In this document: piece by piece, positions 2,385 to 64,000 of the stretch
Layout: every line of letters starts with the position of its first letter
Numbering within the stretch: position 1 is the first letter of the stretch
Assembly (NCBI GenBank): GCA_029531755.1
Contig: CM055976.1
Coordinates: 6,784,493 to 6,848,492 of the forward strand
From: Holothuria leucospilota
Lineage: Eukaryota
Length of the DNA stretch: 64,000 bases
Direction: 5' to 3'
Program-made: the position numbers and the translations under genes
The notes under the pieces: generated by a model
What the model saw: only the letters and a program-made list of their open reading frames with translations
Told to the model about the DNA's origin: nothing
Databases searched by the model: none

Positions 2385-2435
2385 TGATTCCTTGCCGAAG
2401 GCAGGCAAGGAATCTATGCGATGGTGATGTCGTGT

Positions 2436-2500
2436 GTGTGCGTATGTGTGTGCGTATGTGTGTATGTGTGTGTATGTGTGTATGTGTGTGTGTATGTGAC
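2436..2500. repeat. (TG)n / (TGTGTATG)n microsatellite inside the element
   Basis: Direct reading. Confidence 0.9.
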
Positions 2501-4130: not shown

Positions 4131-4510
4131 GGAGGTCAAAAACAAAATTTCCTAAGAATTCCCAAGATCGTCATATGTGGTCACCAGAGGTCAAAAAGCA
4201 AAATTTCCCAAGAATTCCCAAGATTGTCATATGGGGTTACCACAAGTCAAAAGGCAAAATTTCCCAACAATTTCCAAGATTGTCATGGGGTCACCAGACA
4301 TAATAAAGCAAGAATTCCCAAGTGTCATTTGGGGTCACTAAAGGTCAGAAAGCAAAATTCCTCGAGAATTCCCAAGATCATCGTCTGGGGTCACTAAAGG
4401 TCAAAAAGCAAAATTTCCCAAGAATTCCCAAGATTGTCATCTGGGGTCACCAGAGGTCAAAAAGCAAATTTCCCAAGAATTTTCAAGATCCAAGATCCAT
4501 TGGAGGTCAG
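4130..4510. repeat. Short-period satellite of about 57-60 bp, derived from the 3' part of the large monomer (ggtcaccagaggtcaaaaagcaaaatttcccaagaattcccaagattgtcat...)
   Basis: Visible 57-60-bp periodicity. It shares ggtcaccagaggtcaaaaa with the 148-bp monomer. The same sub-array sits at the 3' end of copy 2, at 62590-62810. Confidence 0.8.
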
Positions 4511-13839: not shown

Positions 13840-14115
13840 CATATAGTTCTGATTTGGATTGCACCATCACCTATACATTCGGTATTAATGCACCAGTGTG
13901 TTTTTAATGGTTAAACTTATATATTATGATTATCAGTGGTGTATTTGAGGAGCCATTAGGCCATTCCCCCGTCACTGACGCCGATTATTTTAGTACCTAA
14001 AATAAAACACAAAATTTTACTTCAAAGGTAGCATATGTGGCACCAGATTGCATGTAAGGATACCTTATTTGTCAAAAATTTTCAAAGGGTAGGGGGTGAT
14101 GCCTTTTTTTTTCTT
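13840..14115 (+). repeat. R1 repeat copy, partial, ending in a poly-T immediately before the LINE
   Basis: Matches the reverse complement of 10040-10390 and the plus strand of 17560-17700. Confidence 0.7.
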
Positions 14116-14129
14116 TTAGTACCTAAAAT

Positions 14130-14505
14130 ACGTCGGAGCTTGCCTTGCAATCATAGGCCGGTCAGTTTAACCAGTGTTGTGTGCAAAGTTATGGAATCTG
14201 TAATCAAGGATTGTTTGCTTAAATATCTTTTAGATAATGGGTTACTCAATCTGTCACAGCATGGTTTTTTACCGAGTAGATCTTGTGTTACTAATTTACT
14301 AAGCTTTCTTGAGGATGTTTCCTTATCTCTTGACTGTGGTCACAGTGTTGATGTCATTTACCTTGATTTTTCAAAAGCCTTTGATAAAGTTCCATTAGGT
14401 AGACTTATGGTTAAACTGCATACTAGGTTAGGCATCAGGGGCAGTTGTGCTGACTGGATAAATTCATGGCTCAATGGTAGATCTCAGAGAGTTGTACGTT
14501 GTTAA
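14130..14505 (+). CDS. LINE RT fragment, N-terminal motifs
   Basis: Translation motifs as listed in the parent feature. Confidence 0.7.
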
Positions 14506-14865
14506 TGGTAATTTCTCTTCTTGGAAAGAAGTTACAAGTGGAGTTCCACAGGGTTCTGTTCTTGGCCCGCTTCTTTTCTTAATTTTCATCAATGATATTG
14601 ATAGCTCTCTCACATCTAGTATTAGTAAGTTCGCTGATGATACTAAGCTTTATAGGAAGGTTAGTGATAAGGATGATGCCTCATTACTGCAAAAAGACTT
14701 GGATAGGTTATTTTCATGGTCTCAGACTTGGCAAATGTCTTTTAATGCAGATAAGTGCAAAGTCCTTCACTTAAGTTGGTCCTAAAAATTTCAGCTATGA
14801 TTATAACATGAATGGTAGTATTCTGAGTGATGTGACTTTTGAGAAGGATCTGGGTGTAGTTATTG

Positions 14866-15233: not shown

Positions 15234-15899
15234 ACAGTGTGCAGCTACTGCTGCTAGGGCTAATAGGGTGCTTGGATTGATCAAGAGGAATTTCAGTAGT
15301 TTTAGTAAAGAAATTGTACTGTATAAGCAGTTGGTAAGACCCCACCTCGACTATGCAGCCCAGGCTTGGAGTCCCTTCTATGAAAAGAACAAGCTTCTTT
15401 TAGAGCAAGTTCAGAGGAGAGCCACTCGCCTTATACCCGAGGTGAGACACCTACCTTATCATGTTTGACTTAAGCATCTTGGGCTTACCACCCTTGAGTT
15501 GAGAAGGATTAGGGGGGGACATGCTTCAGGTGTACAAATTTCTCTCTGAAAGGAATCCTTTGTCCTCTTGCAATTATTTAAAGGTTCAATGTAATTCTCG
15601 GGTTCGAGGCCATTGTAAGAAGCTAGTTATGAATTTTGCAAGGCTCGACATTAGGAAGTTCAGCTTTTTCTCATAGAGTTGTTAACGAGTGGAATAGTCT
15701 GCCTGAGTGGGTAGTTAACTCCACATCTGTGCACTGCTTTAAGGTTAACATTGACAAGTTCTTCCATAAGTGTGGTAGAATCTAATTGTGCTGGGCTCAT
15801 TTGGTGTTGGTTGGTTCTTTGTTTTCAGTTAAGGTTGTATGGACTTCAGGGCATCTTATGGGGCCTTAGCCCTCCTTTGCCCTTTAACCCCTTACTCAA

Positions 15900-16590
15900 A
15901 ATCCATATCTGGCTTTATATCTGGAAATATCTGGTTGATTAAAGACTTTATATGGCCATATAAAGCCATATATAACTTGATTAAAACACAACCCAGATAT
16001 GCATATAAAGTTTGGTATGGCCATATAAAGCCAGATATAACTTGATATAATCGTGATCCAGATATGTATATTAAGTTTGATATGGCCATATAAAGCCAGA
16101 TATAACTTGATAAAACTGTGATCCAGATATGTATATAAAGTTTGATATGGCCATATAAAGCCAGATATAACTTGATAAAATGGTGATCCAGATGTGTATA
16201 TAAAGTTTGATATGGCCATATAAAGCCAGATATAACTTGATTAAAACATAACCCAGATATGCATATTAAGTTTGATATGGCCATATAAAGCCAGATATAA
16301 CTTGATATAATCGTGATCCTGATATGTATGTAAAGTTTGATATGGCCATATAAAGCCAGATATAACTTGATAAAATGGTGATCCAGATATGTATATAAAG
16401 TTTGATATGGCCATATAAAGCCAGATATAACTTGATTAAAACATAACCCAGATATGCATATTAAGTTTGATATGGCCATATAAAGCCAGCTATAACTTGA
16501 TATAACCGTGATCCAGATATGTATATAAAGTTTGATATGGCCATATAAAGCCAGATATAACTTGATATGCTAGATATGCAAATGAGCATT
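15900..16590. repeat. 60-bp satellite of about 11 monomers (tatggccatataaagccagatataacttgatWaaa...gatccagatatgtatataaagtttga). Two monomer variants alternate
   Basis: Exact 60-bp spacing of ccatataaagccagatataacttga at 16021, 16081, 16141 and onward. Confidence 0.9.
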
Positions 16591-27289: not shown

Positions 27290-27900
27290 ATTTAAACCTT
27301 AACCATAGCCTAATTCTCTAAAAAATGAACGGTAAAACAGAAATCGAAGCACGCAGTATTTCAGTGCAATTACTTAGCTATTCACAACCCTATCCTATCA
27401 TGCATTACATATGGTTGTAGAGAGTAGGTCTAACACGTTATAGTTTCATACAGCAGTACGGAATGCATGATGTGATATATACTGTATCTATACGTAAATG
27501 TATTTGATACTGTGCATAAATCAATGCAGCATGAGTTCCAGTGTATCAAACTTTCTTGCACAGCTAGCTCATGTTTCAGGTATCGTAATTTCTCAAATAA
27601 TGTAAAAAGCAAAATTTATATCATGGTAATAAACATGCATGTTTTGTATAAAAAGCACCCACTGTTATTAATGCAAAATATGACTAATAACAGCAATTTT
27701 AGCAGTACAAGCAGCGATCGAAAGCTTACTCTACTCTCCTGAACCATACCCTACGGTCATACCCACGAACGTAGGTACGTCCGTCAAATTCTCTACAGAC
27801 CCGTGCATAGCCTTATGTATGGGTGTTTGCATTTAATTACGGAACTACACATGCACTCAGGGATGTAGCTACCGTGGGCAGCACTAGGCGGTGACACCCA
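27290..27900 (+). repeat. Interspersed repeat family R3, about 600 bp. A second copy lies at 52085-52760. An inverted fragment lies at 25860-25990
   Basis: Shared strings include aatgaacggtaaaacagaaat, gtttcatacagcagtacg(g/t)aatgcatg, agcagcgatcgaaa and atgtatgggtgtttgcat(t/a)(t/a)aattacgga(a/c)ctacacatgcact. Confidence 0.65.
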
Positions 27901-43100: not shown

Positions 43101-44910
43101 CTGCGTCGGCCACCGTCCTCTTCTATATCACGCTTAAGAGCAGAGCACATGAGATCTCTTACAACATGATTTTGTGTCTCTATTTTGTGTCTCATCTCAT
43201 TTTGTCCTATCATCAACCAAATAATGTTACGTACAGTTCCCTACCTGTATGGAGATTTAGGTGGAGGAATGCACACCTCTAATACCAAACAGCCTGGACA
43301 TAACTTTCCATATGCTATATGCAGACTTGGATGTCCAGTCGGTCATATGTAATGTAATGTAAATTTATTCTTTTAAGGCAACTCCCAGGCTAGTACAGTG
43401 TAATGCTATGCCACTTAATTTTGCAGAGGGTTACATGCTGTATAGTACCACAGTATTATTGCAGGGGGTTGTATGCTAAACACAGTGTTATTGAAAAGAG
43501 TTGATGTCAAATAGCCACCCTGTGGTCCAGAACAGTTCACTATACCATTTGTGTTTTAGGGAATAAGGGAATTGGCTGTCACATAGTACCGCTACCTCCC
43601 TGTTTCAGTGCTTTGTAATGCTATACCATTGTGTTATTGCAGGGAGTTACAGTCAAATACTTACCACATCCCCATGGTGATTGTTTGGTCTGTAAAGTCT
43701 TATGCATGCAGTATTTGATTTAGATGTGTTCAAATTTTATAACTGTACAGAGGTGATGTGTACTTGTCAGAAGGTATTTTCCCTCACGTTTTTGATCAGT
43801 GGTGTGTTTGTTGAAGAGACAAATCTTCAAGCCTGCCTACAGTATTTTATTGTCTGAAGTTCAAATGAAAAAACTTCCCTGATAACTAGGAAACAAAAAC
43901 TCAAACATATGTTCCAAACAAGCAAGCTGCATTAGTCATAGTAAAACTTGTGAGTTGTGTGCTTTGGTGGTGAAGTAAGTTAATGGTTGATAGTTGTATA
44001 CACACTGCCACTCTGCAATGTGAGCACAGCAGTGCACTAGTGTCATGTGCATTGGGAGGTCAGTGTGGTTACACAGCGTCATCAAACCTTTTTAGTTAGA
44101 CATGTAAGTTTATGGATACTGTACTGCAAATCCTTGGTAATCAAACCCTTTTCCCACCAGGCTGAGAGCCACTTAGAGGAGGATACTACTGTAAATTTAT
44201 GGCAACCCAAAGTGAATGGATAGTTCAGAATTGCCTGTGTGAACTTTTGTGTCAGCTGTCCCATGTGTTATTACTGGGTGATAACTGTAATGCATTGGTA
44301 TATTCAAGGAGGGAGTATACCATACTGTAGGTGGGCTGGGTGTCCCCCTTCAAATTTTGCTTTGGAAGGTGACTTAGGTGCAAAATGGTGTCATTTTCTT
44401 CCTTTTCTTGTGTGTTTATGTTCTGCATTTTTCCTGGAAAATCAAGATATTTTAAGGCACTTTGGGACCACTTGAATGTTACTATTTCAGTTTGAAGGCC
44501 AACTTTTGAACACTCGTGAAGTTAGCTTCAAAACATATTTTGGACTGTTTGGTCTGAGATGCAACTGAATTATAATACTCACAATGCTTAGCTTTTATTA
44601 GTAGGACTTCTTGGCCCTGCTTGTAATTTGCAACATGTGTGCTTACAGTAACTAAGAAGGTGAATGTCCGTATTGGTCTTTGTGGTTGTTTTGTATGAAA
44701 GTTTTGACCAGGGGCAAGCCTCTAACCAAGGGAGACTGGAGGGATGCAGCCTCCTCTAGAAAATTTTTTGCCTCCCCTAGAAAGTCAAAAATTTCCACTG
44801 CCTTAATGTATTTTAGTATATATCTTGTACAGTGTCACTCCCTTAGGAGGCTGTGTGGCCCCCTTTCAGAACTTTGTGTGGCTACAGGCCTTGAATGGGG
44901 TCATAATTTT

Positions 44911-45641
44911 TGATTCTTTGCGTAAGCAAAAGGAATCTGTGATGATGTTTTTGCGTGTGTGTGAGTGTACGGTATGTGATGCTGGTTGTAAACATGATAT
45001 CTCAAGAATGTTAACCTTGAGTGATATCATACTTGGCATGCAGGTACCCCTTATTGAGTAGATGATCCCTATTGTTTTTGGTGGAGGTCAAAGGTCATTT
45101 GGTCAGGAGAGGTCAAAAGGTCAAAACCTTGTAAGAGCAATATCTCAAGAAGGGTAACTGTGCGGAATGTCATAGTTGGCATGTAGATTGCCCATAATAC
45201 AGTAAGTAGATGATCACTATTGTTTTTGATTGAGGTCAAAGGTCATTTGGGGTCACCAGAGGTCAAATGGTAAAAACCTTGGGAATTGCTTGTAAACATG
45301 ATATCTCAAGACAAATTGGTTTGAGGGATCTCATACTTACCTTGTAGATTGCCCATATTAAGCAGATGACCCCTATTGTTTTTGGTGGAAGTCGAAGGTC
45401 ATTTGGTCACCAGAGTTCAAAAGGTCAAAACTTGTAGACATGATATCTCAAGTAGGATAACTGTGAGGGATCTACCACTTGAAAGGTTTCAAAAGGTCAA
45501 AACCTTATTAACATGATATCTCAAGTAGGATAACTGTGAGGGAGCTTATGCTTGCCATGTGGGTATCATTTCATGTTTGTTACAATATATCCACATGGCA
45601 AGGAATCACTATGCCTTTTGGCTTTCTGGTTTGTAAAAGTA
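44911..45641 (+). mobile_element. Helentron-like element, copy 3, short and diverged. Termini are 5' tgattctttgcgtaagcaaaaggaatc and 3' ggcaaggaatcactatgccttttggctttctggtt. It carries about 4 satellite monomers
   Basis: It has the same terminal architecture as copies 1 and 2. The internal units ...ttgtttttggtggaggtcaaaggtcatttggtcaggagaggtcaaaaggtcaaaacc are related to the 148-bp monomer. Confidence 0.55.
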
Positions 45642-47230: not shown

Positions 47231-47319
47231 TCTTCTTGATGTTAAAAAGTAATGATTAGAGGATAAACAAAAATGAAGTGTTCATTAATATTAAACTATT
47301 GGATTGCAATCTTTCACAG

Positions 47320-47452
47320 TACAAAATCATCTATACTGAAAGGATGGCATGTAGTTCTTGACCTTGAAAAGAGCAGCTTTAAAGAGAGACTTGATTTGAA
47401 GAACGAAATACTCAGTCATGGAGGTACTGTTGGTTTTAGTGTCACCAAGAAA
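47320..47452 (+). CDS. PARP4: Exon encoding the N-terminal half of a BRCT domain (KSSILKGWHVVLDLEKSSFKERLDLKNEILSHGGTVGFSVTKK). It resembles the PARP4 N-terminus
   Basis: Acceptor tttcacag| and donor |gtaagt. The pattern hydrophobic-x-L-x-L...I...GG-x-hydrophobic-x-F-S-hydrophobic is followed by THLLV in the next exon. From memory, human PARP4 reads CIFCLKVKYLPQQQKKKLQTDIKENGGKFSFSLNPQCTHIIL. Confidence 0.5.
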
Positions 47453-48343
47453 GTAAGTTGGTTTTTAAGCTATCCTGCAAAAATATGAAATGCAAAATGC
47501 AAACCACTCTACTGGCTGTAATGTCATGTCATGTCAGGGGGGTATAAAACAATTCAGTGTTTTAATTCAAGTTTTCATTTTGAACTGGCAGTGGTAGTGA
47601 CTATATACCTGAGACTGTAACTATGTACTTCTAAAGTGAACTGAGGCGTTATTCATGTAAAGTTCAGTTATTAAAAATAATATGACACAGCTGGGATTTG
47701 TTGAGTATGTGTATTTTACAGAATTGTCCAGTATTCAATAAATGATGGAATTTCCCGAGTGTAAATGTACTGATAAAATTCACTTTTTGCCTATGAGGGG
47801 AAAGTGGAGAGCTTTTCTGTGTTCCTTCCCCCACCCCTGCCTTGGTGATGATACTGGAATCTCCCATTCATTACTGTAGTAGGCTAGCCGCTTTTAGAAC
47901 CAGTGCACTGAGCAAGATGATGTGTAACACTTTTTTCAAGGTGATTGTCCCTTGAGACTTTGAGACCGACTGCCACTGGAACAGCCACAGGGTGTGTTAC
48001 ATGAGCGGTCTAAAAAACCTGTGCCTTGTGGTACAACTGTAACTTTACAATATAAAAGTAGTTGGTGAGTCATTCGCAATTGAAAATGCTGGGGACTTGA
48101 GGGACTTAACATGGCATGCCCACTATAACCTTTTGGTATAGTGACATTTGACCCGGAATCAGTGTAACCATAATGTCTGTAACTGTTGATTGTGAATTTA
48201 TCCTGTTGGTGATTTTACACATGTGAGTGATTAAGCTATAAGGTGAAAATCATTTTGCAGAGTTTGATATTGTCAATGGGTGTTGCACTATGTGTGTTGT
48301 TATCAAATCATAACCACCCATTGCCTCTATTGATATTGTACAG

Positions 48344-48557
48344 ACAACTCATCTCCTGGTGGAAGGAATCTCGAAACGTTCTTTCTCGTTCAAACGACAT
48401 TGTGCTCAGAAATATGGTGTAAAGGTAGTGTCTGTGGATTATGTCCGTGACTGTTTGGAGTCAGGGTCAGTGCTGAGTGTTGAGCCATACATTGCTGCAG
48501 ATAAGGTAGAGGAGACCGAGAACAAAGAAAATAACCTTTTATCTGGTAAAATTAAAG
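48344..48557 (+). CDS. PARP4: Exon encoding the C-terminal half of the BRCT (TTHLLVEGISKRSFSFKRHCAQKYGVKVVSVDYVRDCLESGSVLSVEPY...), phase 0 to 1
   Basis: Acceptor ttgtacag| and donor |gtaaga. The BRCT C-terminal signature, hydrophobic-V-x-x-D/W-hydrophobic-x-x-C/S...Y-x-P-Y, is present. It aligns with PARP4 ...HVHIANPDFIWKSIREKRLLDVKNYDPY. Confidence 0.5.
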
Positions 48558-48859
48558 GTAAGAGATAGAAGGAAAGATTGTTACATAGGCATGTGTTAGA
48601 AAGTGTTAAATATAGTTTGATGTGTAGATATCTATGATATCTACTAGTAGACCTGTGTTGATATGCACAGGGAGAATCCTGGGGGTATGATAAGGATATT
48701 ACCCGCACTTTTTCTCACACTTCTCTGGTCCTGTGTATAGTCACATGTGTTTCTGTGTTCAACAGTTTCATTTATTTATCCTAAGTGTTGTATTGGTGTT
48801 AAAGGTGCTCACATTGTTTGGATTATCATTCAGACATGTCATCAGGGCTCAAAGAAGTT

Positions 48860-48990
48860 TATTCCTGGGAGGGGAGTCAAATTTTCCACAGTAAAGCTAA
48901 TTTTCCTTCCACCTGCTTAAATTTCTCCCCACATACTCAAATTTCCTGGGAAAGAGCCTCCCATCTTCCCAACTTTTTCACACATGTAAG
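48860..48990. repeat. Intronic interspersed repeat. A second copy lies at 50215-50350
   Basis: Shared strings include ggagtcaaatt(t/g)tccaca, aattttcct(t/c)c, caaatttcctgggaa(a/g)gagcctccca(t/g)cttcccaactttttc. Confidence 0.6.
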
Positions 48991-49452
48991 CATATTTTAT
49001 TTCCCATATAAAACAGCCTGTGTCAACTCGTGCCCAGCTATAACCATGCAGGATCATGCATTGAAAAAACATAAGAAATTAAGATTTTCAGAGGAGAGGA
49101 CAGGTGGCAAACTTGTATACTTTGCATACTATGCAAACAGGTTTACACATGTTCTTGTGTCCAATTTTGTACTACAGGTTTTGTCTCAGAATGATATGTG
49201 ACCATTGACTTTAATTGCTACACAATTTTGGATGTAAAACCACTGAAAAACTGAGGCAAACCTGTGGAAAAGTAGGGTAACTACCAACATGTGTCATTGT
49301 CCAGTGAAAGCACCGCTTTTTCAGGCAGAATACCTGTGGTTACCCTTGGCAGACACAAGTGAAAGCCTGTAGATTTCTATAAACAAATTAGCACAGGTTC
49401 TTTGAAAGGGTTGTTATAATTCAAATTTATCTTTTGTTTATAAACTATGCAG

Positions 49453-49510
49453 CTTTGGGGAAGCAGAGAGGAGTTTTACAAGAAAAACCAGAAGAAAGCA
49501 TGAAAGAAGA
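49453..49510 (+). CDS. PARP4: Short exon, phase 1 to 2 ((A)LGKQRGVLQEKPEESMKE), an acidic linker
   Basis: Acceptor aactatgcag| and donor |gtaagt. The phases match both neighbours. Confidence 0.4.
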
Positions 49511-52084
49511 GTAAGTATAGTTACAGTAAGTAATAAACTGGGTTCTAGCTAGGAAAGGCTTATTTAGTATCCTAATGGTCTGTATGCATATGACGTGACA
49601 AACCAGAAAGTGCGCCCTTGGCTAGGGGTAATTGCTTAGCACTACAGCTTAGTCTCACATCAACACAAATGTAGACAGCTCATTTTTGTACCAGTCAGAT
49701 ATGCTCCCAGAGTCTACATGCTCATGCAAAGGCTAGACCTTGCCATACAGAAGTACTAAAGTCATGTACCTTATTTAGCTAGGGTGATTGTTTCTCCTCT
49801 AACTTGACGTTGGCGTGATGTCAACGCACAGGGTCTGTAGACAGTGTTTTTGCTATGCAAGAAACTTTGCTTCCCTGGGACGCAACCTCTCAAAAATATG
49901 TGCTTCCCAACCTTCAGTACTTGTGTTTGCTAGGATCGACTGTATTATTAGCTTTGCCCATCATCTTGCATCATTAACTGTACTAGTCTATTTAGTGGGC
50001 AGTTTTTAAGTTTGAAGGGGTTCTGACAGAATGCCAATTTAGTCACCAGTCAAAGTAAAGTAAATGTCAACTTAGTCAAAAAATTTGGGCAAATTTGAAC
50101 TATTTTGGGGGCAATTCCCCTTGTGTGGGAGAAGCATGAATACAGCATTCCTGCTCAGGCAGTCTGCACAAGGATGTTAGGTTGCAGTTCTGGAAGAAAT
50201 GTTTTGTTTCCTTGGAATGGAGTCAAATTGTCCACAATTCATTCCCATGTCTTCATATACAAAGAAGGCAAATTTTCCTCCAGTTGTCAAAATTTCCCTC
50301 CAAGTACATGAATTTTCTGGGAAGGAGCCTCCCAGCTTCCCAACTTTTTCCATCCATGGTTAGGTTGTTTCAAAAGAGTTGAAAAGTCAGTGCTAGTTTT
50401 GCTCAGGTTTCGGTGTAAAAGTTACATTCGTTTTATGCAGTGCAGTAAGTGTACACTGTTCTGTGCATGGTGCACGTTCATTGTCAGGTAACGTGATTTG
50501 GACTGCAAACAGAAACTTGTGTCTGGCGGTCGCAGCTCAGTAACACTTTCTGCATCCCCTGAAAGTTTCGTGCATCCCGGACGCAAAATCCTGTAAAAAT
50601 GCTGGTAGAGCATAGTAAGGGAATGTCAACTCGAAAGGGTCCAGTGGCCAGGCTGAAGGTCTCCCCTGGAGTCACTTCCTTTATCAGGTTGGCCTCCTAA
50701 AATTGTGTGCTTTGGGAAAAGCCATTCTGTTGTCATTATTTCTCAAATTAACAGTTTTCCATTTCCATGTTAGGGTCTTTTGTTCAATTCTGTGTCGATT
50801 GCTAAAATGCAAATTCACACGGAGAAGCCTTCAGGCAATGCAAGTTCAGTTGCTCCCAACTGGTGCTGAATGATTTGGCTAGGACCCTTGTAATAAGTAA
50901 TAAATTGAACCACATTGAGGCATTTTCCGGTGGCATTTTGTACGGGTCTTATATGAAATAGAAAAATTTTTCATTACATGTCATCCACACCCCATACCAA
51001 AACTCCATTCCTAACTCAAGATATCCCTTCTTGAAGATTGGTTACTTTAATTTGTAATGAAGTACCTTCAGGTTTCCTCAAGGTCGCAGAATGTGATGCC
51101 AAGTAGGCAAATTGCCCCAGATTCCTTTTGTTATTCTTTATAATTAAATACCCTGTTTGTCCTTGAAATTTGATACTGTTGGAATGCTAAACATTTTCCT
51201 GTGTAGATCTCTTGTAGAACTGTCCTTTTAGTGGTATCAATATTATAGAGAAACACAAAAGCCATGTGGAATTATTTTGCCCAGATGACATCACAGATTT
51301 CCCATCATGCACTGTGGAAGCTGAAAATATAGAATTTCTTCAAAAATTAGCACCTTCCAAATGCAAGTTGCTGTCCAGATGGGGTTTTAGTTCACTGCGT
51401 AATGCAGAAAATTTCCATGCACTTTTTGAAAACATCAAATTTGGTCACCAAAACATGTTTTAAAATAGTTGTTGGTAATAAGTGGCAAGTACAGTGGTTG
51501 CTGTGTCCAGGGTCCTCCTTAATGATATTGTTTTGCATAGCAAAACTGCTCTGCATTTTTTATTTCGTATAGTTATTTACAAATTTTGCAAAACAGTTTT
51601 GTTGTTGACAAAAGAGTAATCCATGTCAGTTTAAAAAAAAACGTTGATTTCTGTGAACATATTTTCCTATTGAAACAACTTATTTTGAACATTCAAACCG
51701 TTAAACCAACGATTGACCATTAGCCGGTGCCAAATTCAACAAAACGTTTAAACGAATTACCTTTTAAAAATATGAAAACGGGAGTTTAGCATTTACACTT
51801 TCCAGTGTTTTGCTTTAATATCTTTTCATTAAACGATGTTTATTTGCCAATTTAACAACCAAATGAGGCTTGGAAAGTAAACTGTCATGAAGTTGGTGAC
51901 TCTTCATTCATAGCATAATATCTGCATGAAAGTTTTAATTCCCCTAAACAAACCGCAATGCCTTCATCATCCCGTCTGTAGCAGTAGCCCAAATCTACTT
52001 ATTACTACACAGTAGGGCTTTACAAATTGATTCACACTTTCTCAGCTTACTGTTTGACCATATTCGTAGCCCAAGTCTCTCTCA

Positions 52085-52760
52085 GAATGAACGGTAAAAC
52101 AGAAATACTTAGTTGCCCTCAATTTTCAATGCAGTTACTTGGCTATTTCACACCATCGTACCATGTATTACGTATACAAAAGCAGAAGATGTAGGCTCAC
52201 ATGTGTTTGTTTTAAGTGTTATTAGTTTCATACAGCAGTACGTAATGCATGCATGCACTAACATTCCTACCTAAATATCTGTTCCATACTTTGTGCAAAT
52301 CAACTTGAGGTACAATTGAATACAAAATCCAGTGGTGTGTCAAACTTTCATGCACAACTCATGGGGCCACATTTCAGTCATGAATTGCAATTGTGTAAAT
52401 ACAAGGCACACTTTTATATCACACATTTTAACATGTGTTTTAATACAGACAAATTAGCACCCACCGTCACTAACGCAAACTGTGAGGTAACAAATGGAAA
52501 TTTAGCACTAAAAGCAGCGATCGAAAATATTCTGCACTCCCTGTACCGTGCCAATGTTCTTCGGATGTACGTCAATTTCTCAACGGAGCAGGTACGTAGC
52601 CTAATGTATGGGTGTTTGCATAAAATTACGGACCTACACATGCACTGACTTCACTGTGCCCATATCGTGCGTTTCACGTGAAAGTTTGCACAGAACATGG
52701 ACATGGCCAAAGCTATCAGTGTTTATGTACGGCCCTATACCAAACGTACTATTAATGACT
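52085..52760 (+). repeat. Second copy of repeat family R3. It explains ORF 52316-52648
   Basis: See 27290-27900. Confidence 0.65.
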
Positions 52761-54005
52761 GCAAATTTGACACTTGCATTGATAATTTTGGGTAAATGAA
52801 AAACAGATGGGTGAAATGGTCGCTAGATCTCGACGTACAGGTTAAAAAAAGCTTGTGCATATTGCGAACATCGTTGTGCGTGGTCATGCAATAGTGCCAG
52901 TAATGCATTTAACTGTTCAGTGATACTGAATATGGACATTTTTCAAATTGTAAACCATAGTTTATTCTGGCCGTTTATAACGTTAAGAAGATTAAACGGA
53001 AATTGACAGCCCTACTAATTATTGAATTATTAAAACTCATACAGGGAATTGAATCATTTTAATGATAGTTTTAGGTTGGAATTGAAATGTAAAAATTTGT
53101 GTGAAACGAGAAGCCAAGTCCAGTCTTTGTGTGGATGCTAAAATGCCTGTGCAAATTACTTCTATCGATTTGCAGGTTTATGTCGCAAATCTGCAAGGCA
53201 TTAAAATGTTTGTATCGCTAAAGTCCCTCAATTGCATCGCAAACTGCAATGCGATACCTGCTATTGTGGACCCAGGCTGTGTCACTAAAGCAGGAAGATA
53301 AAAAGTGAAAGCATTGAAATGTGTAGGTAGAAGTACCTCTTTTAAATTACGAATATTCATTAGACAGTTGCTTCATTACTGTCTGTATTCACATATGAAT
53401 GTTTGTAGCTTAAAGGTTTTTTTTTTAAGTTGTACTTATAAGAGCACATGTGTCAAGACCGCCCATTGAGATTTGGTGTACCAGTGGCACTCAGAGTTTG
53501 AGCTAAATGTTATACGAATCATTACACAGATTTGTCTAGCATGTAAAAAAATTGTCAAATCCTTTACATTTGTGGTTATTTATTGTCATTATTTATTGTC
53601 ATTAGTAATATTTCTAGATTATAGAAATAATGGTACTCCATCTTTCATTTACAAGTGAAATACAGATTACAGATTTGTGCCTTAATGTTGTCAGCCCTAA
53701 ATGGTTGCATCACATGGCGCTACACTAACCAGCACAAACATTACGGTGCTACTGTTGAAATTTTTACTTGAACCGAATATAACTTTTGCAATCTCTTATG
53801 CTGGCCACCAAGTAAGAAGGTAGTAGGCCCATGTTTCAAATAACTGGTGTTACCCAACAGGGGTTTGACCCCAAGTCTCCAGGCTGAAAGGCATTCTAAC
53901 CACCAGGCCATCCTGTTGATATTGGTCATACTTGTATCTTAGCATTGCAGATGAATGTACAGCCCTTTAACAATTCTGTTTGATCTCTTTGCCCTGCTGA
54001 TCTAG

Positions 54006-54072
54006 GCCCTTCATTTGGGAAGATTTTGAAAGCAAGGCAGAATATCAAATTGCAAAGTTTTGCTTTATGAAG
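54006..54072 (+). CDS. PARP4: Exon, phase 2 to 0 ((E)PFIWEDFESKAEYQIAKFCFMK)
   Basis: Acceptor ctttgccctgctgatctag| and donor |gtaagt. The non-zero phase matches exon 49453-49510. It may correspond to PARP4 ...PQDFEVAKYNTLEK. Confidence 0.4.
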
Positions 54073-57000
54073 GTAAGTGTGATAATATTCTTAAGCCCAG
54101 ATACATGGTTAGTTTGGAATTGTTGATATTATAATTTATGTATGCAATAACAGAAAATGTGAAGATCAATTTGTCATCCCTTATTATTTAAAGAAAATAC
54201 AACTTGTATGTAAACTATTGCTCAAGAGTATATGTGTGTCATTAATATATATATTTTTTTTTACATTGTGGAATTTATATTGAATTGATTTAATAGACTT
54301 TGGGCATTGTGTAAGTAGTAGATACACCCAGCTGTATGTGCATGTAAATAAGTGCAACAGGGTTCTTAGCCACTAACTGGGGCCAGTGAATTTATCCATG
54401 CATGTTTGTAAAGTGATATAGGAACCTGGTAACAAGTCAATTCCTTCAGCCACTTGTGACACCTTTGTTAATGAAAATTCAACAGAAAGCATATCCATCT
54501 ATGGCTCATTTACAGTTTTTTGCTGTGAATCTGTGAAGACTATGAGGAGAATAACAAGGGTTGCTGTGTGTTCAAGGGCAGAGATAATAAACAACAATGG
54601 CTATCTGATCCAAAAAACATTTTTAGCTCAACCCACGAAGTGGGTAGAGCTTATGTGGTACTGTGGGGTGGAAATGTCTGTCTCTCTCTTCAAAAACTTT
54701 CATCATCTGCAATTGCTGGTCGATTGTTGTGAAATTTGCAGTAAAGGTGCCATATTAGGATGGCAATACATGTATTACGTAGCTACATGATCGGACAAAG
54801 AAAAGTGGTCATTTTTGGCCATTTTGTTCATTTTCATGTTCATTTTCCTGGTTCCTCGTTCCTTTTGAAGTCTCACTCCTTGGATAATGCAGTTATATTT
54901 CATGGTACTGAGCTTAAATTAGCTTTATCTAGAGGGGCATGCTCACCAACTTAAATGAGCAGCCTGAAGGCAAAAGCCTGCATGAGACAAGTGTCCAGTT
55001 ACTTTGTTTTAACTGCTACTCTTAGGTATTGTTTGTATTTCTTAAAGTTGCCAATGTCCAGTGTATGGCAGAGCAATTTTAGTATCTGTTACATAGCTGT
55101 CCTTGCTGTGTGAGGACATTGCATACAAAGGGTTCATTGTTTGTTCGGGAGTTGTTACATTTGGCTCATCACTTGTTTTCCTGGTCTAGCTGAAGGGGTA
55201 GTCTATTAAGGAATGTTTAAGTGAAGAGATTTGAGCTTTGTTCACTTAAGGCCCTTAAGGAATCAGTGTTTAGAAATTTATATTTTTAAAGTACCAAAAT
55301 CAGCACAACTTACAGCAGCAGCATTTAAAGGGATTTGCCAGGGACTACCTTTGACAACTTCTGAAAATGTAGAAAATTTTCCTGTTTAAGGAGGTAAAAA
55401 CCATATCTCTGTTGCATGTAGCATTTGGAAGATACAAAACTGGTCGCGTTTGTGTACTGTGACTCCAGTTTTTGATCCCTACCCTTACTGGCAGCACTGC
55501 TAGGGTATGAACTGGCGGTATAGATTTATCTTGATGACTTCCACCTGCTAGTTGAAGTGTTTGGTTAGTCCAACATAGTTCAGGTACAGTATGTAGAGAA
55601 TATGGACCATGATTGTGTTCAAAATTAATTAAAGACCGAGCAGGTCATAACATTAGAAGGTTGAGCGACTGCAGCGATGCTGCTCTGGTATATTTTGTTA
55701 TATTTGAGTAGTTAAAGGGAAATATTGGGTTTAAAATGCACCAACATGGCATACAAAGAAAATATCCTTAACCATTATTTAACCGTTTAGTCTCGCCAAT
55801 AAACTCTAGCAATAGCTTTATCTCCTCAAAATCTTATGCGTGACAGCAGTTATGGATGTTGCATCATTTGAATTTTTGGAAGTTTGGGTGAACAAAGCAC
55901 TTTTGTGCAACAGATACAGTAGCTGAATTTCTTGCTGTAAGAGCCTTATTTCCTGAAAAGAAAGCTACATTACTGCCGTATTTTGAAGTGTCTATCATTC
56001 TGTATCTGTAAAATTTGGTTTAAAAAATATGAAAATTTTCTCTAAACCAAACGCAATATTTCCCTTTAAAGATAAAGTTTAATCTTACTGTAATCCCATG
56101 TTCTCACAAAGCATACAGAAAATGTGTTCGAAACTTGAACGTTGTTGATCTTGTTTGTTCGTCCCTGATCTTGACTTTGTGAGCTCTATAAGTAGACTTG
56201 TGATGAGGCTTTATGGGCAATGACATCACAAGGTCATAAAAACCATAGTAAGCCTTCTCAGGAGAAATACATGTGCACAGTTTTTTGCAATAAGTAGTGA
56301 AGGCCATCCTCTATTATGGTTGTTATTAAATATGTGATGATGTGATACATGTGTATTGTTTTAATACTATACTTGGTTTTAGCAGTTAGTTGTATGGGAG
56401 AAAGTACATAACAATATGAATGCTATTGTAGCAATTGCTCCTGTATGACACACCCCCCTTCCCTCCCCTCCCCTCCCCCCATGTCCACTGTATAAAGTGC
56501 TACTAATTGTAATGCAGTTTACTTGCATATAAAGACTGGTGGTATGGTTTCTAAATTCCTATATAGTTCCAAAAGAAACCATTTAGTGGGAATTTGTTCA
56601 AAGGGAAACAATATGGCTTTCAAGAAGGCTATTCAAATGTAGTAGAAATACTGTGGTGATCAAATTGCAAGTTGAATGTAACTTGAAAAACATTCAGGAC
56701 TTTTTAAAATAGTGAAAAGGACAAGTTGATTGAACAGAAGTAAAGGTCTCAAAATTGAAGTAGAAAACAGTGTGATGCATTAAAGGACAGTAAGGAAGCA
56801 GAGGGTATTTAATATGTGAATTGCAATGTTGAATTGAAATGAGTGCTAAGGAATTCATGTGATGTAAATATAAAAGCATTTTTCAGTTTCACTCAAATAC
56901 TGCATGAACATGTTGCTACACAATTGCATTTTGTATGGATACTGCAAATGTTACGTACAATAAAGGTTTAGAAACCTTGTTGTAAGTTAACATTACAAAT

Positions 57001-57679
57001 ATTTTATAATGTATTTACACAGGATCTGAAGAATGAAAGTCCAAGTCGATGTCTGCTAGTGGAGCTTCATGTTTTGACAGAACCAACTGCTAGACGGTAT
57101 AGGATATACTGTCAGTTTCTGCTGGGGGTAAACTACCTTCTGTTCATCACTTCATATTCAATATGGGTTCTTTGTGTAAAAATTGGTACATATGTACAAC
57201 TTTATACCCGTGGTAAAAAGATTTGGAAATTGTTTTAATACACATTTTACAGTTTTCTTTGACATAGTTTAGAGTAATAGTTAAAATGGTTCAAGGGATT
57301 GCATTTTGTGTGGGAAGTCTTCATCATCGTATGGAGCAAATCCAGTAATGATGTGAGTGGTCACAAGAGGCAGATGAGGATGGGAGGGGAGTGTACATGG
57401 AAGTCCTATTTTCATAATCAGTGATGGAATTCACTTTTTTATTGTAGGGGACTCTTTCGCATTTACACTGAAAAAAATTGACCCCTTCAGTACAACTTAG
57501 AGGGTTGTGATTGTACTTTTTCAGGTAATTTTGTTGACTGGGGAGGTAAATGGTCTGCCAGCTCTGCTGATTTTCACTGCTAGTAACTATACTATGACAT
57601 GCTTGTTATTTTGACTTCAAAATGAGCATGGATGCATGTGTTAAGTCATTGTTTTCATGTTTGTATTTTGTGTTTACAG

Positions 57680-57826
57680 GACAAATCTGTGGTGGAGAAG
57701 TGCTTCTCATTATCATCGAGTTTACAAGCTGTAGCTGCATATTGTAAGATTACAAAGTCCCTACAGCCTATGTTCTCTATTACAGATGTGAAATCTGAAA
57801 AGTTTGGCTCACCAAAATTTCAAAAG
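57680..57826 (+). CDS. PARP4: Exon, phase 0 to 0 (DKSVVEKCFSLSSSLQAVAAYCKITKSLQPMFSITDVKSEKFGSPKFQK)
   Basis: A strong acceptor (tgtattttgtgtttacag|) and donor |gtaagt. The open frame is 49 codons. Confidence 0.45.
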
Positions 57827-59882
57827 GTAAGTAGCAACAAGTCTAGTATGTGGAGAAGGCAGGGTGTGTATAGTATGAGGTATTGTATGCTTGTAAAGTT
57901 ATATTTGATTCTAAGGTAACACATGGGATGAAAAAAGAACCATACAAACACCAAATGTCCCCTCCCCATCCCCCACCCCCCAGTCAAAAAACAGACCTTT
58001 AATTTTGGTTCTATTGTGAAAGCTGTAGAAGTTACATTGTCATTAGTATGCTTGGTCAAAATGTGGAACTTAAATAAGTGATGTTTTTTTTTTTTTTGTA
58101 TATTTCTTCAAACAAAATGGCAATCTTATGGAGTACTTTGTGCTAACAGTGTAAAGTTGTATTCCTATGCTCTCAATTTAGTGGATAATGTGCCATTACT
58201 GCATTACATGTTAAATTCCATTTGGCCAGGGGTTCTCATGTGTTTTTTGCGGGCCACATTCCGTGAGCTTATCAGTTTTTGTTGTAGTAACCAGGTGGGG
58301 CGAATGAAGGGTTTGGAGAAAGGGGTTCATTCTTGAGGGCAAAGTCCATTCTTTACAGCTCTGAAAGTGAAGGTAGTGATGGAGAGTCTATGGATTCTTA
58401 ATTTGTGTTGTGCTGTACAGGATCAAAGCCTACCTCAGCCCTACCAAGGTTGGGGTGAGGTGAGAAAATTTGATATTCCAAATACACCAGATAGCAGTAA
58501 AAGGCACTACTAGACAACACAAAGTTGCCACCTTGGTTCCTCTTCCCCGATGCATAAGTTGCCTGTCCATATGGTGGAATTATGGCATCTGAACCACCCT
58601 AGATTGGCTAAAATTTCACTCTCAAAACACAAATTTGTCATTAGAGGTCTGTGATTACCATTAGAGGGTCTCCAGTATGAGAGAGAAATTGGCATCTCAC
58701 ACACTCTAGATTGGAGAAAATCCCAATTTTAGCATAACTTTTTTACAGTATGTTTGCATCCACTATGTATACACAACCAAATGGCCTATGGGAGACAAAT
58801 GTGGCATCTTAAGGCAGATTGCACTCAAGACATGGTACATAGAAAAACTTCTGGCTCTTAAAATATTCTGCTGGCCACATTATTGGATGTCACAGTCCAC
58901 AAATGGCCCACAAACCGCTACTTGAGAACCAAGGCATCGGACTTAATTTTTGAGGATTTTTTAGCCAGTCAGGCAATTTATTTGTAAATATGCCCACTCT
59001 GCCATACATTGATTTTCTCTCTTGTGTGTAGGTACCTTGACCATAACTGTCTGTACAGTAGAGACATCAACTGAGCCTGTGTAGCACACAGCCACTATAC
59101 TGTACTTTGTACACAAAAAGTGACTTCATAATCAGCAAGTTCAGCCAAGTGTGTAAGATTTGTGGTTCACACAGTGGTAGCCCTGAACAAACTCTGCTGT
59201 GATCAAAAAGGTAACTGTGACATGATCTGGTCACATGGCACCCATATCAAACTGCAATTGGGAGGAAGCTGAAATGCAGGCTGGGGAGGGGGGGGGGGGT
59301 TGAATGCATAATGGGTTATAGTTATCTGAAAGGAAAAGTAACAGAACTGTAGATGTGAGTTTCTCGGAACAGTGTGGTTACCGTTGCATTTTGTACACAA
59401 GAAAACGTGACTTAAGCAAGTTTCAGCCCTAACTCAAGTTGTACTTTTGCTACAGTTGCTGAATACATGCATGCTAGTGACTAAATACTTGTACATCAGT
59501 TTTAGAAGTTGTGATTTATAAATGGTTTACCACAGAAGATACTGCAATATGTTAAATGTGAAGTTTATTTGCACTTCACACAAATACCAGACAGTACAAT
59601 CAAATATGTAGTAACAAGAAAAAAAATAGAGTGGCAAAGCAAGTACAGGTATAGCACAATGATAGAAAGTGATGACAGAAGTACAGGGATAACACAGAAA
59701 AGACTTGTCAGCAGGCTTAATTCCACTGTGAAGCTTGAAATGAATAAAATGTACAAACACATAGAAGCATAAGGACCTGTAAAACAAAAAATTAGAAGTA
59801 CAGGAAAGTAGAGCCTGCTTCATCTCGCAGTTTGGAAAGAAGTTCTTTTCAGATTGAAGAATATTATAATCTTATTCATTAG

Positions 59883-60017
59883 ATGCAAATGGAAACTCAC
59901 ACCATCAGTGCAGACAAACTGAGTACATCAGTCAAAACCTTGGTGGACATTGTGTGGAAAGAAGCCATTGGAACAGTATCAGCTTCAGTTGACGTTACCT
60001 CTGTGACTACAGAAAAG
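59883..60017 (+). CDS. PARP4: Exon, phase 0 to 0 (MQMETHTISADKLSTSVKTLVDIVWKEAIGTVSASVDVTSVTTEK). It contains a PARP regulatory helical-domain motif
   Basis: Acceptor cttattcattag| and donor |gtaagt. LVDIVWKEAIG resembles human PARP4 SDLVEMIWAEALG (from memory) and the PARP1 HD segment VQDLIKMIFDVESM. Confidence 0.5.
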
Positions 60018-61040
60018 GTAAGTATATCTGGAAGCATACTGGTATGTCAATGCCCCCTCAAATCAGTATTGTAGCTGTAATCCCATGAAAAAGCCATGAA
60101 TTATACCCCCCCCCCCCCTTCATAATTTGTCTGTCTATGTAAGGACTTGATATACCTGGAAAAGGTAAGGCTGAATGCCAGTCAGCTGGCACAAATTTGG
60201 CAAGGTACTGAGGTTTAGCAAGAGAGAAATCAAGTTAGAAACCAAGAAAATGTAGGGCATCAAGTAGAAAAAGTACAGATGGCATCAAGATTATTAAGGC
60301 CTTTGGTGTTGGCCATTTTTAGGGGCATGAAGGCAAGGTAGGGGAACCCCAAAACCATGGCTTGTGGTGCATGTGGTCATTTCAAGCCCTGCCATGGGTA
60401 TAGCTAAGTGAAGATGGAGGTGCTCAAAATGTGTGTTTCATTGTATGGAGGCAATAAAAATAAAAAATTTTTACCCACAGTAGATTGATTTTAGAGCAAC
60501 TGAGCTTGTAAGTTTACCACGTTGGTAAAGCCTGAATGCACTTTAATTTTCTCTTCATAGATCTGTATTTTAGTTGGTCTGTATTTTCAAGCTGTCATTT
60601 ACCAGTATATCTTGATGTGTCACTAGAACACTATTTGTCTGATCATGTGTTGTTTGTAAATCATTGTGAGACTTGAGTTGATATCAATCAAACAACAGAC
60701 AAGGCCATCATAGATGTTGGTTGAATTTCATTTTTCCGATGATATTATGCCTATTTAGTTTTTATTGACTCAGCAAGAGAGTTAACTGTTATTAAGTGTG
60801 ACTCAGTTAGTACAAAAATACTTTTCAAGGCTCAAGCTGTTGATTTTAAAACATATAACTCAAATAGAGTTAACTGTGAAATCTGACTCAGTTTAACAGT
60901 TTTATAATGAGTAACTTCACTTCATGGTCCAGATTAAAGACCATAAGTAGGACTCAGTGTAGTTTTTGATTCCTTGCCGAAGGCAGGCAAGGAATCTATG
61001 CGATGGTGATGTCGTGTGTGTGTGTGTGTGCGTGTGTGTG

Positions 61041-61690
61041 CACTCACAGACACCTCCTTAGCGGGACATGGGCAGCCGGCGAGAACTAAGCTCTCGCATG
61101 TCTTTCCTAGCTCACGCGCGGCTCGAAACTGGCGTAGCTGCCTGAGAATTCCGTCACTGGAATGAGAAGTCTCGCGCGGCTGCACGTGCCTGCCTTGCGA
61201 GCAGCCCGCCCTCCAGACACGTACGTCTACCGGGTGAGTTGGAGGCCAGCCAAGCTCATGGGGAAATCCCGTGAATTCCTTACCGGGTCCTGTGTACGTG
61301 TACCGGTAAGGCAGCGAGGGTGCGTATGTGTGACCCGAAGCTGTGTGTGCATGTCTGAGGCTGCTGTGGGCATGTGTGTGCACTCACAGACACCTCCTTA
61401 GCGGGACATGGGCAGCCGGCGAGAACTAAGCTCTCGCACGTCTTTCCTAGCTCACGCGCGGCTCGAAACTGGCGTAGCTGCCTGAGAATTCCGTCACTGG
61501 AATGAGAAGTCTCGCGCGGCTGCACGTGCCTGCCTTGCGAGCAGCCCGCCCTCCAGACACGTACGTCTACCGGATGAGTTGGAGGTCAGCCAAGCTCATG
61601 GGGAAATCCCGTGAATTCCTTACCGGGTCCTGTGTACGTGTACTGGTAAGGCTGGGTGGGTGCGTATGTGTGTGTGTATGTGACGCCTAG
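61041..61690. repeat. Two near-identical tandem copies (period 340 bp) of a GC-rich, CpG-rich unit (gcactcacagacacctccttagcgggacatgggcagccggcgagaactaagctctcgca...). They are absent from copy 1
   Basis: 61041-61380 matches 61381-61690 with about 6 mismatches. Each unit is bounded by (TG)n. Copy 1 passes directly from (TG)n to ...tgtgacgcttagcttgtaaacacgat. Confidence 0.85.
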
Positions 61691-62590
61691 CTTGTAAACA
61701 CGATATCTCAAGATAGCAATGACCGACACTTTTATTATTTTGTATATAGATTTTTCATGTTAAAAGAAAGAAACCCATTGTTTTTGGTGGAGGTCAAAGG
61801 TCATTTGAGGTCACCAGAGTTCAACAACTGAGAACCTTATAAACACAATATCTCAAGATAGCAACGATGTACACTTTTCATATTTGGTGTACAGATTTGT
61901 CATGTCAAAAGGAAGAACCCTATTCTTTTTAGTAGAGGTCAAAGGTCATCCGAGGTCACCAGAGGTGAAACTGTGAAAACCTCATAAACGGCTTGTAAAC
62001 ACGATATCTCAAGATAGCAATGACTGACACTTTTCATGTTTGGTATATAGATTTGTCATGTTGAGAGAAAGAACCCTATTGTATTTGGTGAAGGTCAAAG
62101 GTCATTTGAGTTCACCGGAGGTAAAAGCTGAAAAGCTTGTAATCACGATATCTCAAGATAGGAATGACCGACACTTTTCATATTTGGTATCTAGAGTTGT
62201 CATGTTGAGAGAAAGAACCCTATTGTATTTGGTGGAGGTCAAATGTCATTTGAGGTCACCAGAGGTCAGAGACTGAAAACCTTGAGATCACGATAAATCA
62301 AGATAGGAATGACTGATATAGATTTGTCATGTTGAGAGGAAGAATGCTATTGTTTTTGGTAGAGGTCAAAGGTCATGTGATGTCACCAGAGGTCAAAAAC
62401 CGAAAACTTTGTAAACACGATATCTCAAGTTAGCAGTGACCAACACTTTCATATTTGGTATACAGATTTGTCATGTCAAGAGAAAGAACCCAATTGTTGT
62501 TGGTGAAGGTCAAAGGTCATTTAGGGTCACAGGAGCTAAAAAACTGAAAAGCTTGTAGTGACAATTTCTCAAGGTAGGAATGATGGACAC
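61690..62590. repeat. Satellite array of about 6 monomers, the same 148/160-bp family as 2500-4130
   Basis: The anchor cttgtaaacacgatatctcaagatagcaatgac recurs. A and B monomer variants alternate. Confidence 0.85.
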
Positions 62591-62810
62591 TTTTGATATT
62601 TAGTAAAATTTCCCAACAGTTCCCAAGATTGTTGTATGGGGTCACCAGAGGTCAAAAAGCAAAATTTCCCAAAGAATTCCCAAGATCGTAATCTGGGGTC
62701 ACCAGAGGTCAAAAGCAAAATTTTCCGAGTATTCCCAAGATCTTAATCTGGGGTAACCAGAGGTCAAAAAGCAAAATTTGCCAAGAATTTTCAAGATCCA
62801 AGATCCATTG
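62590..62810. repeat. 57-60-bp sub-satellite (ggtcaccagaggtcaaaaagcaaaatttcccaa(a)gaattcccaagatcgtaatctgg)
   Basis: Same periodic unit as 4130-4510. Confidence 0.8.
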
Positions 62811-64000
62811 GAGTTGAATCCCTTTCAAGACACTTCTGTTTTCCTTTTTGTTATATTTGGTTGTGTTCAGAGGTCATATGAGGTTAGCAGGGGTCAAATT
62901 GTTAAAACATCATAAAATGATGTATTCAAGAAAGATAAATTTGAGGGATAAAGCTCAGTGCAACAAAGCATCCCCATTCGGCAAGGAATCACTAAGCCTT
63001 CGGGCTTTCTGGTTGTTAAATGTGACTCAGTTAAGGAGGTAAAACACTTTGTGGCCTAGATGCCCTTCATGGCCCAGCTACCCTTCATGGCCCTTCATGG
63101 CCCAGCTTCACAGCCTAGTGGTTTTCGTTGCCTGCATATACTTCATGGCCCAGACTTTTTGCTGTGAGTGACTGAGTTCTGGTGTGAAAATATCTTTCTT
63201 TTTTATGCTCCAGGATTTTAGTTTATTGAATCTGTGCATGTTAGCACTTAATTCTTTGGCTTTATGAAATAAATATTTATTTGAAATAATACAGTATGTT
63301 ACATTGTTTGATTTAGAATACCTATTGTTAGATACAAGTAAATGGAATAAAATGTAGTAAATGAAACTAAAATGAATAATCTGGAAGTGAAAAGAAGGGC
63401 CTAAGCTCAAATCAAGCTTTGATATGTTAGAGGGGTACTTATTCTAAGCAATCTTGTGAAATTTCTATTGAAATCCGATGTGTGGTTCTCAAGATATCAG
63501 CAGATAAAGTTGTCACATTTTCAACAGAAAGTGAACTTGGAGCAAGCACATATTATGTCATAGCCTCACATTAATTAGCAGTCTTTTGTTTTTCTTTAAA
63601 CTTTATCACCAATTTTCTCCTGAACAAGCAAATGTTATTAGAATACGATTGCATGAGAGGCATGAGAAAATTACAAACTTCACATTCCTAACGGGGAGGT
63701 CCTATCCCTATTAATTTCAAGTTCAACACAACAGACTGAAAAAATAAAAGAAACAAAGCACTCCTTATCAATGTGAGGAAGTGATATCAGGGAGCTGCAG
63801 CCTAATGATTTAACTCCTCCTTGCCTCAAGCTCACTTTGCTTTACAAATTTAGTTACTTCTTTTGCTTATATCTCGAGTAATACATGTCCAGTTTGAATG
63901 AAAATTTTACCAAAATGCATAGATTTAGTTCCTCTTTCACAGATGAAAAGAAAATTTTTGCTTAAACCCTTCTTTTAAGAATCATTGTCCAAGGGCTAGT

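Follow-up and report, generated by a model that had tools for sequence, protein, structure and literature searches.

Which gene begins in the repeat-rich DNA between positions 47320 and 60017 of the 64,000-nucleotide stretch of Holothuria leucospilota analysed here (GenBank assembly GCA_029531755.1, contig CM055976.1, positions 6,784,493 to 6,848,492; hereafter the window, to which all nucleotide coordinates refer)? The window is AT-rich, animal-type DNA (39% G+C) with many retroelement remains and tandem repeats. In it, the original prediction had placed six exons of a PARP4-like gene. PARP4 occurs in nearly all animals (PMC4245714), and a gene of this family is therefore to be expected here. 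From sequence and profile comparisons, we conclude that seven exons, one of which had been missed by eye, very probably make up the 5' portion of an animal protein-coding gene that belongs to the PARP4 (vault PARP, clade 5) family. The 286 encoded residues comprise, in order, a BRCT domain at the N-terminus, a basic/acidic linker that is disordered, a β-sheet domain of WGR-like type and the opening helices of the helical domain. The main value of this result lies in annotation: it provides the 5' exon-intron structure of a gene of this family, set in repeat-rich animal DNA, together with the missed exon.

Exon structure of the gene

On direct reading, each of the six exon intervals proposed originally has AG directly before it and GTAAG directly after it. 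Their concatenation, 754 nt in length, keeps one frame open for 251 codons, with junction phases of 0, 1, 2, 0 and 0, so that the proposed boundaries, phases and open frame were all borne out. The accompanying argument, that such a phase match would rarely be coincidental, was overstated: the + strand between 44 and 64 kb, a region of 20 kb, holds 115 open AG…GTAAG candidate exons, which are attached to 19 donors. Because phase consistency alone has little force, each exon was tested by homology. A profile hidden Markov model was built from 13 PARP4-type N-termini, with the query left out, and it was run on every stop-free segment of the six reading frames of the window, 3454 in all. The matches on the + strand are collinear, and five of the six proposed exons were recovered, three of them significantly.

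When the six-exon chain is aligned with the 13 PARP4-type N-termini, it is short of about 45 residues at the junction between its fourth and fifth exons. A new segment found in the profile scan fills precisely profile positions 155-196, which are absent from the six-exon chain. It reads …CLLVELHVLTEPTARRYRIYCQ…, and the family pattern is F-x-V-L-E-L-H…Y-R-V-F. The six exons of the original prediction were found as it had given them; its model lacked the exon at 57023-57127, whose omission left the frame intact because it is in phase 0/0. The chain, renumbered, is composed of the following exons, with E-values and positions from the profile scan.

47320..47452, + strand: coding exon 1 as seen here; AG/GTAAG boundaries; E 1.2e-9, profile positions 2-48; tblastn matches from 14 PARP4-type proteins.
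48344..48557, + strand: coding exon 2; E 5e-16, profile positions 44-112; Pfam BRCT match across the exon 1/2 junction; orthologous exon in contig L001 of a distantly related species.
49453..49510, + strand: probable coding exon 3; 58 nt, phase 1 to 2; splice signals tatgcag/gtaagt.
54006..54072, + strand: coding exon 4; 67 nt; E 16, profile positions 146-159; EYQIAKF aligned with the conserved Y-E-V-A-K-Y of PARP4 homologues.
57023..57127, + strand: coding exon 5; 105 nt, phase 0/0; ttacacag/GAT CTG…CTG GGG/gtaaac; match of the new segment within 56972-57235, E 22, profile positions 155-196.
57680..57826, + strand: coding exon 6; 147 nt; gtttacag/gtaagt; E 0.08, profile positions 208-265, collinear with its neighbours.
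59883..60017, + strand: coding exon 7; 135 nt; attcattag/gtaagt; E 9.6e-8, profile positions 263-313.

The first base of exon 1 completes a split codon, and the exon encodes TKSSILKGWHVVLDLEKSSFKERLDLKNEILSHGGTVGFSVTKK, which is the N-terminal half of the BRCT domain. Exon 2 encodes the C-terminal half, followed by a conserved S-G-K-I motif, and ends in phase 1. The product of exon 3 is a charged linker, (A)LGKQRGVLQEKPEESMKE(E), and belongs to the part of the chain that is disordered in the structural model described below. This exon is the sole AG…GTAAG candidate (50-300 nt) of its intron with a length and an open frame that restore the reading frame, and on its splice signals and this restoration it is probably coding. 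Exon 4, with the product PFIWEDFESKAEYQIAKFCFMK, supplies the WGR-like domain with its first strand region. Its profile match is not significant by itself; phmmer alignments pass through it (query 4-157). The two central strands of the same domain, DLKNESPSRCLLVELHVLTEPTARRYRIYCQFLLG, come from exon 5. Exon 6 contributes the last strand and the helix of this domain, and then a conserved G-S-x-K-F-Q-K linker. With exon 7, which encodes MQMETHTISADKLSTSVKTLVDIVWKEAIGTVSASVDVTSVTTEK, the PARP helical (regulatory) domain begins; in tblastn, this exon is matched by residues in the range of about 215-520 of 10 PARP4-type proteins. Each of the seven exons has an open frame and canonical splice sites, and all are single-copy within the window. 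The largest introns of the gene reach 4.5 kb.

Assignment to the PARP4 family

The chain was compared by phmmer with a library of 1.84e9 (1.84 billion) cluster representatives, at an E of 0.001 or better. A word-indexed protein search with the six-exon chain had returned nothing, and the exhaustive scan was needed; it gave 98 matches for that chain. The best matches with one BRCT domain are proteins of 1100-2500 residues that align to the six-exon chain from their own N-terminus, in two stretches. In P0002, P0003, P0004, P0005, P0007, P0009, P0013 and P0014, Pfam places BRCT at or near the N-terminus, followed by the PARP catalytic domain, VIT and vWA, and several of them also have PARP_reg. 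This order is the PARP4 architecture, and the source names of these proteins are PARP4, PARP4-like or poly(ADP-ribose) polymerase. The PARP1 architecture was found in none of the library matches checked. The matches so named come from the following animals.

Bivalves: Potamilus, Mytilus, Ylistrum, Saccostrea, Magallana, Solemya.
Gastropods: Biomphalaria, Candidula, Plakobranchus.
Echinoderms: Lytechinus, Diadema, Antedon.
Others: Nematostella, a scorpion (Centruroides), a catfish (Clarias).

Three comparisons became stronger when exon 5 was included. The profile alignment, split into two pieces with 146.4 bits before, became a single domain over positions 2-303 with 161.9 bits, and the Potamilus protein P0002 became the best library match, with 110 bits in one stretch over residues 11-285. 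In the Protein Data Bank (PDB), human PARP4 is matched by the six-exon chain at E 0.018 (22-119 against 22-118); with seven exons it becomes the best match, at E 2.3e-7, in one collinear stretch (22-273 against 22-278). A phmmer search of the PDB with only the last 117 residues encoded by the six exons returned no PARP, and the PARP4 match beyond the BRCT domain thus appears only when exon 5 is present. The phmmer scan, the query-free profile and the position of human PARP4 as top PDB match support the proposal that this is the 5' part of a PARP4-like gene.

Four invertebrate PARP4-like proteins, which rank among the best library matches, align with the whole chain in one stretch: those of Potamilus streckersoni (KAK3593675.1), Mytilus edulis (CAG2205451.1) and Ylistrum balloti (XP_060065436.1), with 92-110 bits, and that of Nematostella vectensis (XP_032219397.2), with 76 bits. 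They share with it the motifs S-G-K-I, Y-x-h-A-K-F/Y, h-L-E-L-H, Y-R-h, G-S-x-K-F-Q-K and W-x-E-A. They differ in that identity is 31-35%, that Q-F-L-L-G stands here for their H-H-G, and that a loop is shorter here. Human PARP4 (PDB 11jf_P and 9bw6; BRCT domain, 9dev) likewise begins with a BRCT domain, which is followed by a linker, a WGR-like domain that lacks W-G-R and a helical domain that opens with L-V-x-h-I-W-x-E-A. Its identity to the chain is low, however, the linker is acidic/basic here and of other length, and the comparison covers the first 286 residues. In the homologues P0003, P0007, P0009 and P0013, we also observed C-terminal Pfam matches to Actin, HSP70 or ubiquitin, which are either real fusions or merged gene models. 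Appended domains of this kind have been described for PARP4-like proteins (PMC4245714).

Domain content and predicted structure

Pfam identifies one domain in the chain, BRCT (PF00533, E 1.2e-9, residues 2-82). It runs across the splice junction, in agreement with the proposal that the first two exons encode it; PARP_reg was undetected. The single BRCT domain lies at the extreme N-terminus, and the initiator methionine of the homologues is located 2-4 residues ahead of the aligned start. The motif LVDIVWKEAIG, to which the original prediction had drawn attention, is indeed in exon 7, at the start of the PARP4 helical domain, where the homologues have L-V-E-h-I-W-x-E-A. About 30 residues of this domain are within the window. 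The region from the BRCT domain to the helical domain is a WGR-like domain in which the W-G-R residues are not conserved; with exon 5 included, it aligns continuously with profile positions 146-265. In human PARP4, with the domain order BRCT-WGR-CAT (the last being the catalytic domain), the sequence of BRCT, WGR and helical domains is known as the 'PARP1-homology region', and there too the WGR domain lacks the W-G-R residues (PMC10711553).

An AlphaFold2 model built on a 13-row alignment has a mean predicted local distance difference test score (pLDDT) of 65.5. It can be described as a BRCT fold, residues 1-95, a disordered linker, residues 97-130, with pLDDT below 50, and a segment of four long strands and a helix, residues 148-226, with pLDDT of 72-86. 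Exon 5 provides strands 166-175 and 183-191, also with pLDDT of 72-86. When compared with the PDB by Foldseek, the model matched BRCT domains, including that of PARP4 (template modelling score 0.67-0.71), and the WGR domains of PARP1, PARP2 and PARP3 (E 0.016-0.2).

Conservation in related species and the start of the gene

Two short proteins from Logan assemblies match exon 1 with 60-64% identity. They are read-through open reading frames over genomic contigs. Contig L001, from a distantly related species, contains both exons 1 and 2, separated by an intron of about 415 nt. Amino acid identity is about 60% for exon 1 and 52% for exon 2 (E 9e-20). Three splice sites of L001 are at codon positions and phases identical to those of the window.

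L001 exon 1 acceptor: cttttcag/G GAG…, phase 2.
L001 exon 1 donor: AAA AAG/gtgtgt.
L001 exon 2 acceptor: cgtatag/ACT ACC CAT.

Over 108 aligned codons of exons 1 and 2, the proportions of nonsynonymous (pN) and synonymous (pS) differences between the window and L001 are 0.29 and 0.83, respectively. The saturation of synonymous sites, together with the low pN, indicates purifying selection on the reading frame of these two exons.

The conserved phase-2 acceptor of exon 1 implies an upstream exon that carries the real start. One in-frame ATG reads through this acceptor.

47273..47275, + strand: in-frame ATG, read from the sequence (MKCSLILNYWIAIFHS-TKSS…).

This ATG could be the start codon, though it is unproven as such. 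Similarity to the related contig at the nucleotide level begins only at 47331, and the ATG is without support from conservation.

Alternative explanations

Several observations weigh against the assignment to PARP4. Exon 3 found no homology support in the profile scan, and no start codon candidate was singled out between 36 and 47 kb. All Foldseek matches in the PDB have E above 0.001 and are weak support only. Identity to the N-termini of PARP4 homologues is 23-35%, while the bivalve orthologues are 44-72% identical among themselves. In the core of the WGR-like domain, Q-F-L-L-G occupies the H-H-G position and the next loop is about 10 residues shorter. Finally, Pfam searches of the three + frames of 60018-64000 gave no signal of PARP_reg, PARP, VIT or vWA. 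The divergence, the altered core motif, the last 4 kb of the window without a detectable exon and the surroundings rich in transposon remains and tandem repeats would suit a truncated or decaying copy, that is, a duplicated 5' fragment of PARP4 without catalytic continuation, or a transcribed pseudogene. We consider this improbable: frames are open and splice sites canonical in all seven exons, exons 1 and 2 have been kept in a distantly related species under the constraint described above, with their splice positions, and with introns as long as those of this gene an exon-free stretch of 4 kb is unremarkable.

The exons might instead belong to another gene with a BRCT domain, such as PARP1, XRCC1, LIG3 or TopBP1/Rad4, and the likeness to PARP4 would then be that of the generic BRCT fold. 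The best PDB match of the six-exon chain is indeed the BRCT domain of Schizosaccharomyces pombe Rad4/TopBP1 (E 7.7e-5), ahead of human PARP4, and its nominal top library match, P0001 of a chytrid, has five BRCT repeats, as has P0011 of a raphidophyte. These matches, however, cover only the BRCT domain, and the scores of P0001 and P0011 add up from five weak stretches that each reach at most 23.6 bits. PARP4-type proteins align past the BRCT domain, through the WGR-like region and to the helical domain at residue 285, and exon 7 alone matches the start of the PARP4 helical domain (E 1e-7). The seven-exon chain retrieved no PARP1, XRCC1 or LIG3 chain from the PDB at E up to 10; the best match is thus not one of these proteins, a test that had been set in advance. 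PARP1 has the same order of BRCT, WGR and helical domains, and its WGR domain was among the weak Foldseek matches, but it carries three N-terminal zinc fingers. The zf-PARP motif (PROSITE pattern, and even its W-[FYH]-H-x2-C core) is absent from all six frames of the window, and the BRCT domain here is at the very N-terminus, as in PARP4. Multi-BRCT scaffolds (TopBP1/Rad4, XRCC1, MDC1) differ in turn, as one BRCT domain is followed here by PARP4-type sequence. A gene of this other kind is therefore very unlikely. Equally hard to credit is that exons 3 to 7 are unreal, open AG…GT segments joined by chance to a genuine two-exon BRCT domain. The abundance of open candidates does permit phase-compatible chains by choice, and exon 3, as well as exon 4 alone, is without significant homology. 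Against this, exons 5, 6 and 7 occupy successive collinear positions of a profile that excluded the query, exon 5 was predicted from the alignment gap before it was found, and the joined chain is continuous against both the profile and human PARP4.

With the PARP4 family thus preferred, the divergence of this copy is one mildly interesting point, which could bear on the evolution of the BRCT-WGR regulatory module of PARP4. The segment ahead of Y-Q-I-A-K is also shorter than in the homologues. The gene may come from a lineage that the library does not cover. It may also be a diverged paralogue; Solemya, for example, has two PARP4-like genes. That it is a fast-evolving, lineage-specific PARP4 paralogue with a WGR-like domain devoid of the conserved H-H-G core, and not a standard single-copy orthologue, is a tentative idea that we regard as rather unlikely. 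If it were so, its regulation or partners may differ from those of the canonical vault PARP. The gene is, in sum, an ordinary though divergent new member of a well-known family.

The proposed gene product

The exon structure, the identity of the N-terminal domains, the family placement and the selection on exons 1 and 2 were obtained from the window and its relatives; what follows would be carried over from the family. The rest of the gene would be located 3' of the window, where it would complete the helical domain and add the ADP-ribosyltransferase fold, VIT, vWA and a tail at the C-terminus. Beyond 60017, the profile scan detected no exon, nor did tblastn with 700 residues of 17 homologues, and the sequence from 60018 to 64000 consists mostly of the composite repeat described below. 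Pieces resembling the helical domain near 63.4-63.6 kb (VRGVLILSNLVKFLLKSD and KLYHQFSPEQ), noticed by eye, were dropped as no search supported them.

PARP4 associates with vault particles through a C-terminal MVP-binding region. By analogy with the family, the product would be a mono-ADP-ribosyltransferase and might be associated with vaults. Vault RNA is among the nucleic acids bound by the BRCT domain of human PARP4, in which BRCT and WGR together also lower the catalytic output (PMC10711553, PMC12212138). Both properties, the binding by BRCT and the restraint on catalysis by BRCT and WGR, may be presumed here on the same grounds.

Repeats and other elements of the window

An Rfam search of the whole window gave no match, and Pfam found none in the long intronic open segments 48803-49198 and 52262-52645. 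A composite repeat is present in three places. It has a head of about 80 bp, which is 94% identical between copies, and arrays of a tandem unit of about 145 bp, which are 76-87% identical between copies. It also includes a 340-bp tandem duplication (97%), bordered by (TG)n. The label 'Helentron' in the original prediction may refer to this repeat; no open reading frame for Rep/helicase was found. In contigs L002-L004, from related species, the repeat families of this composite lie beside the orthologue of exon 1.

The remains of retrotransposons are of two types. A 434-codon open segment has RVT_1 (E 9e-37) and RT_RNaseH (E 3e-34) matches and is a pol fragment of a long terminal repeat (LTR)-type retrotransposon. 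Remains resembling long interspersed nuclear elements (LINEs) have an Exo_endo_phos match (E 3e-6) and two adjacent reverse-transcriptase pieces (E 1.5e-12 and 5e-15). These two pieces are in different frames, which suggests a frameshifted, dead LINE-like copy. Another open segment, of 195-225 codons, has a periodic translation, …ISGFIWPYQTLYTYLDHHFIKLYLALYGHIKLYIHI…, and is most likely a tandem DNA repeat that is open by chance, not a gene. The positions of these elements, and of two further repeats, are as follows.

60963-62813, + strand: composite repeat, with the 340-bp tandem duplication at 61025-61664.
2381-4505, + strand: composite repeat.
44907-45565, + strand: composite repeat.
5572-6873, + strand: LTR-type pol fragment.
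1679-2413, - strand, and 14032-14782, + strand: LINE-like remains.
15895-16569, - strand: periodic open segment.
52067-52646, + strand, in the intron between exons 3 and 4, and 27306-27857: dispersed repeat of about 600 bp, 66% identity.
48893-48979 and 50265-50350: 86-bp repeat pair.

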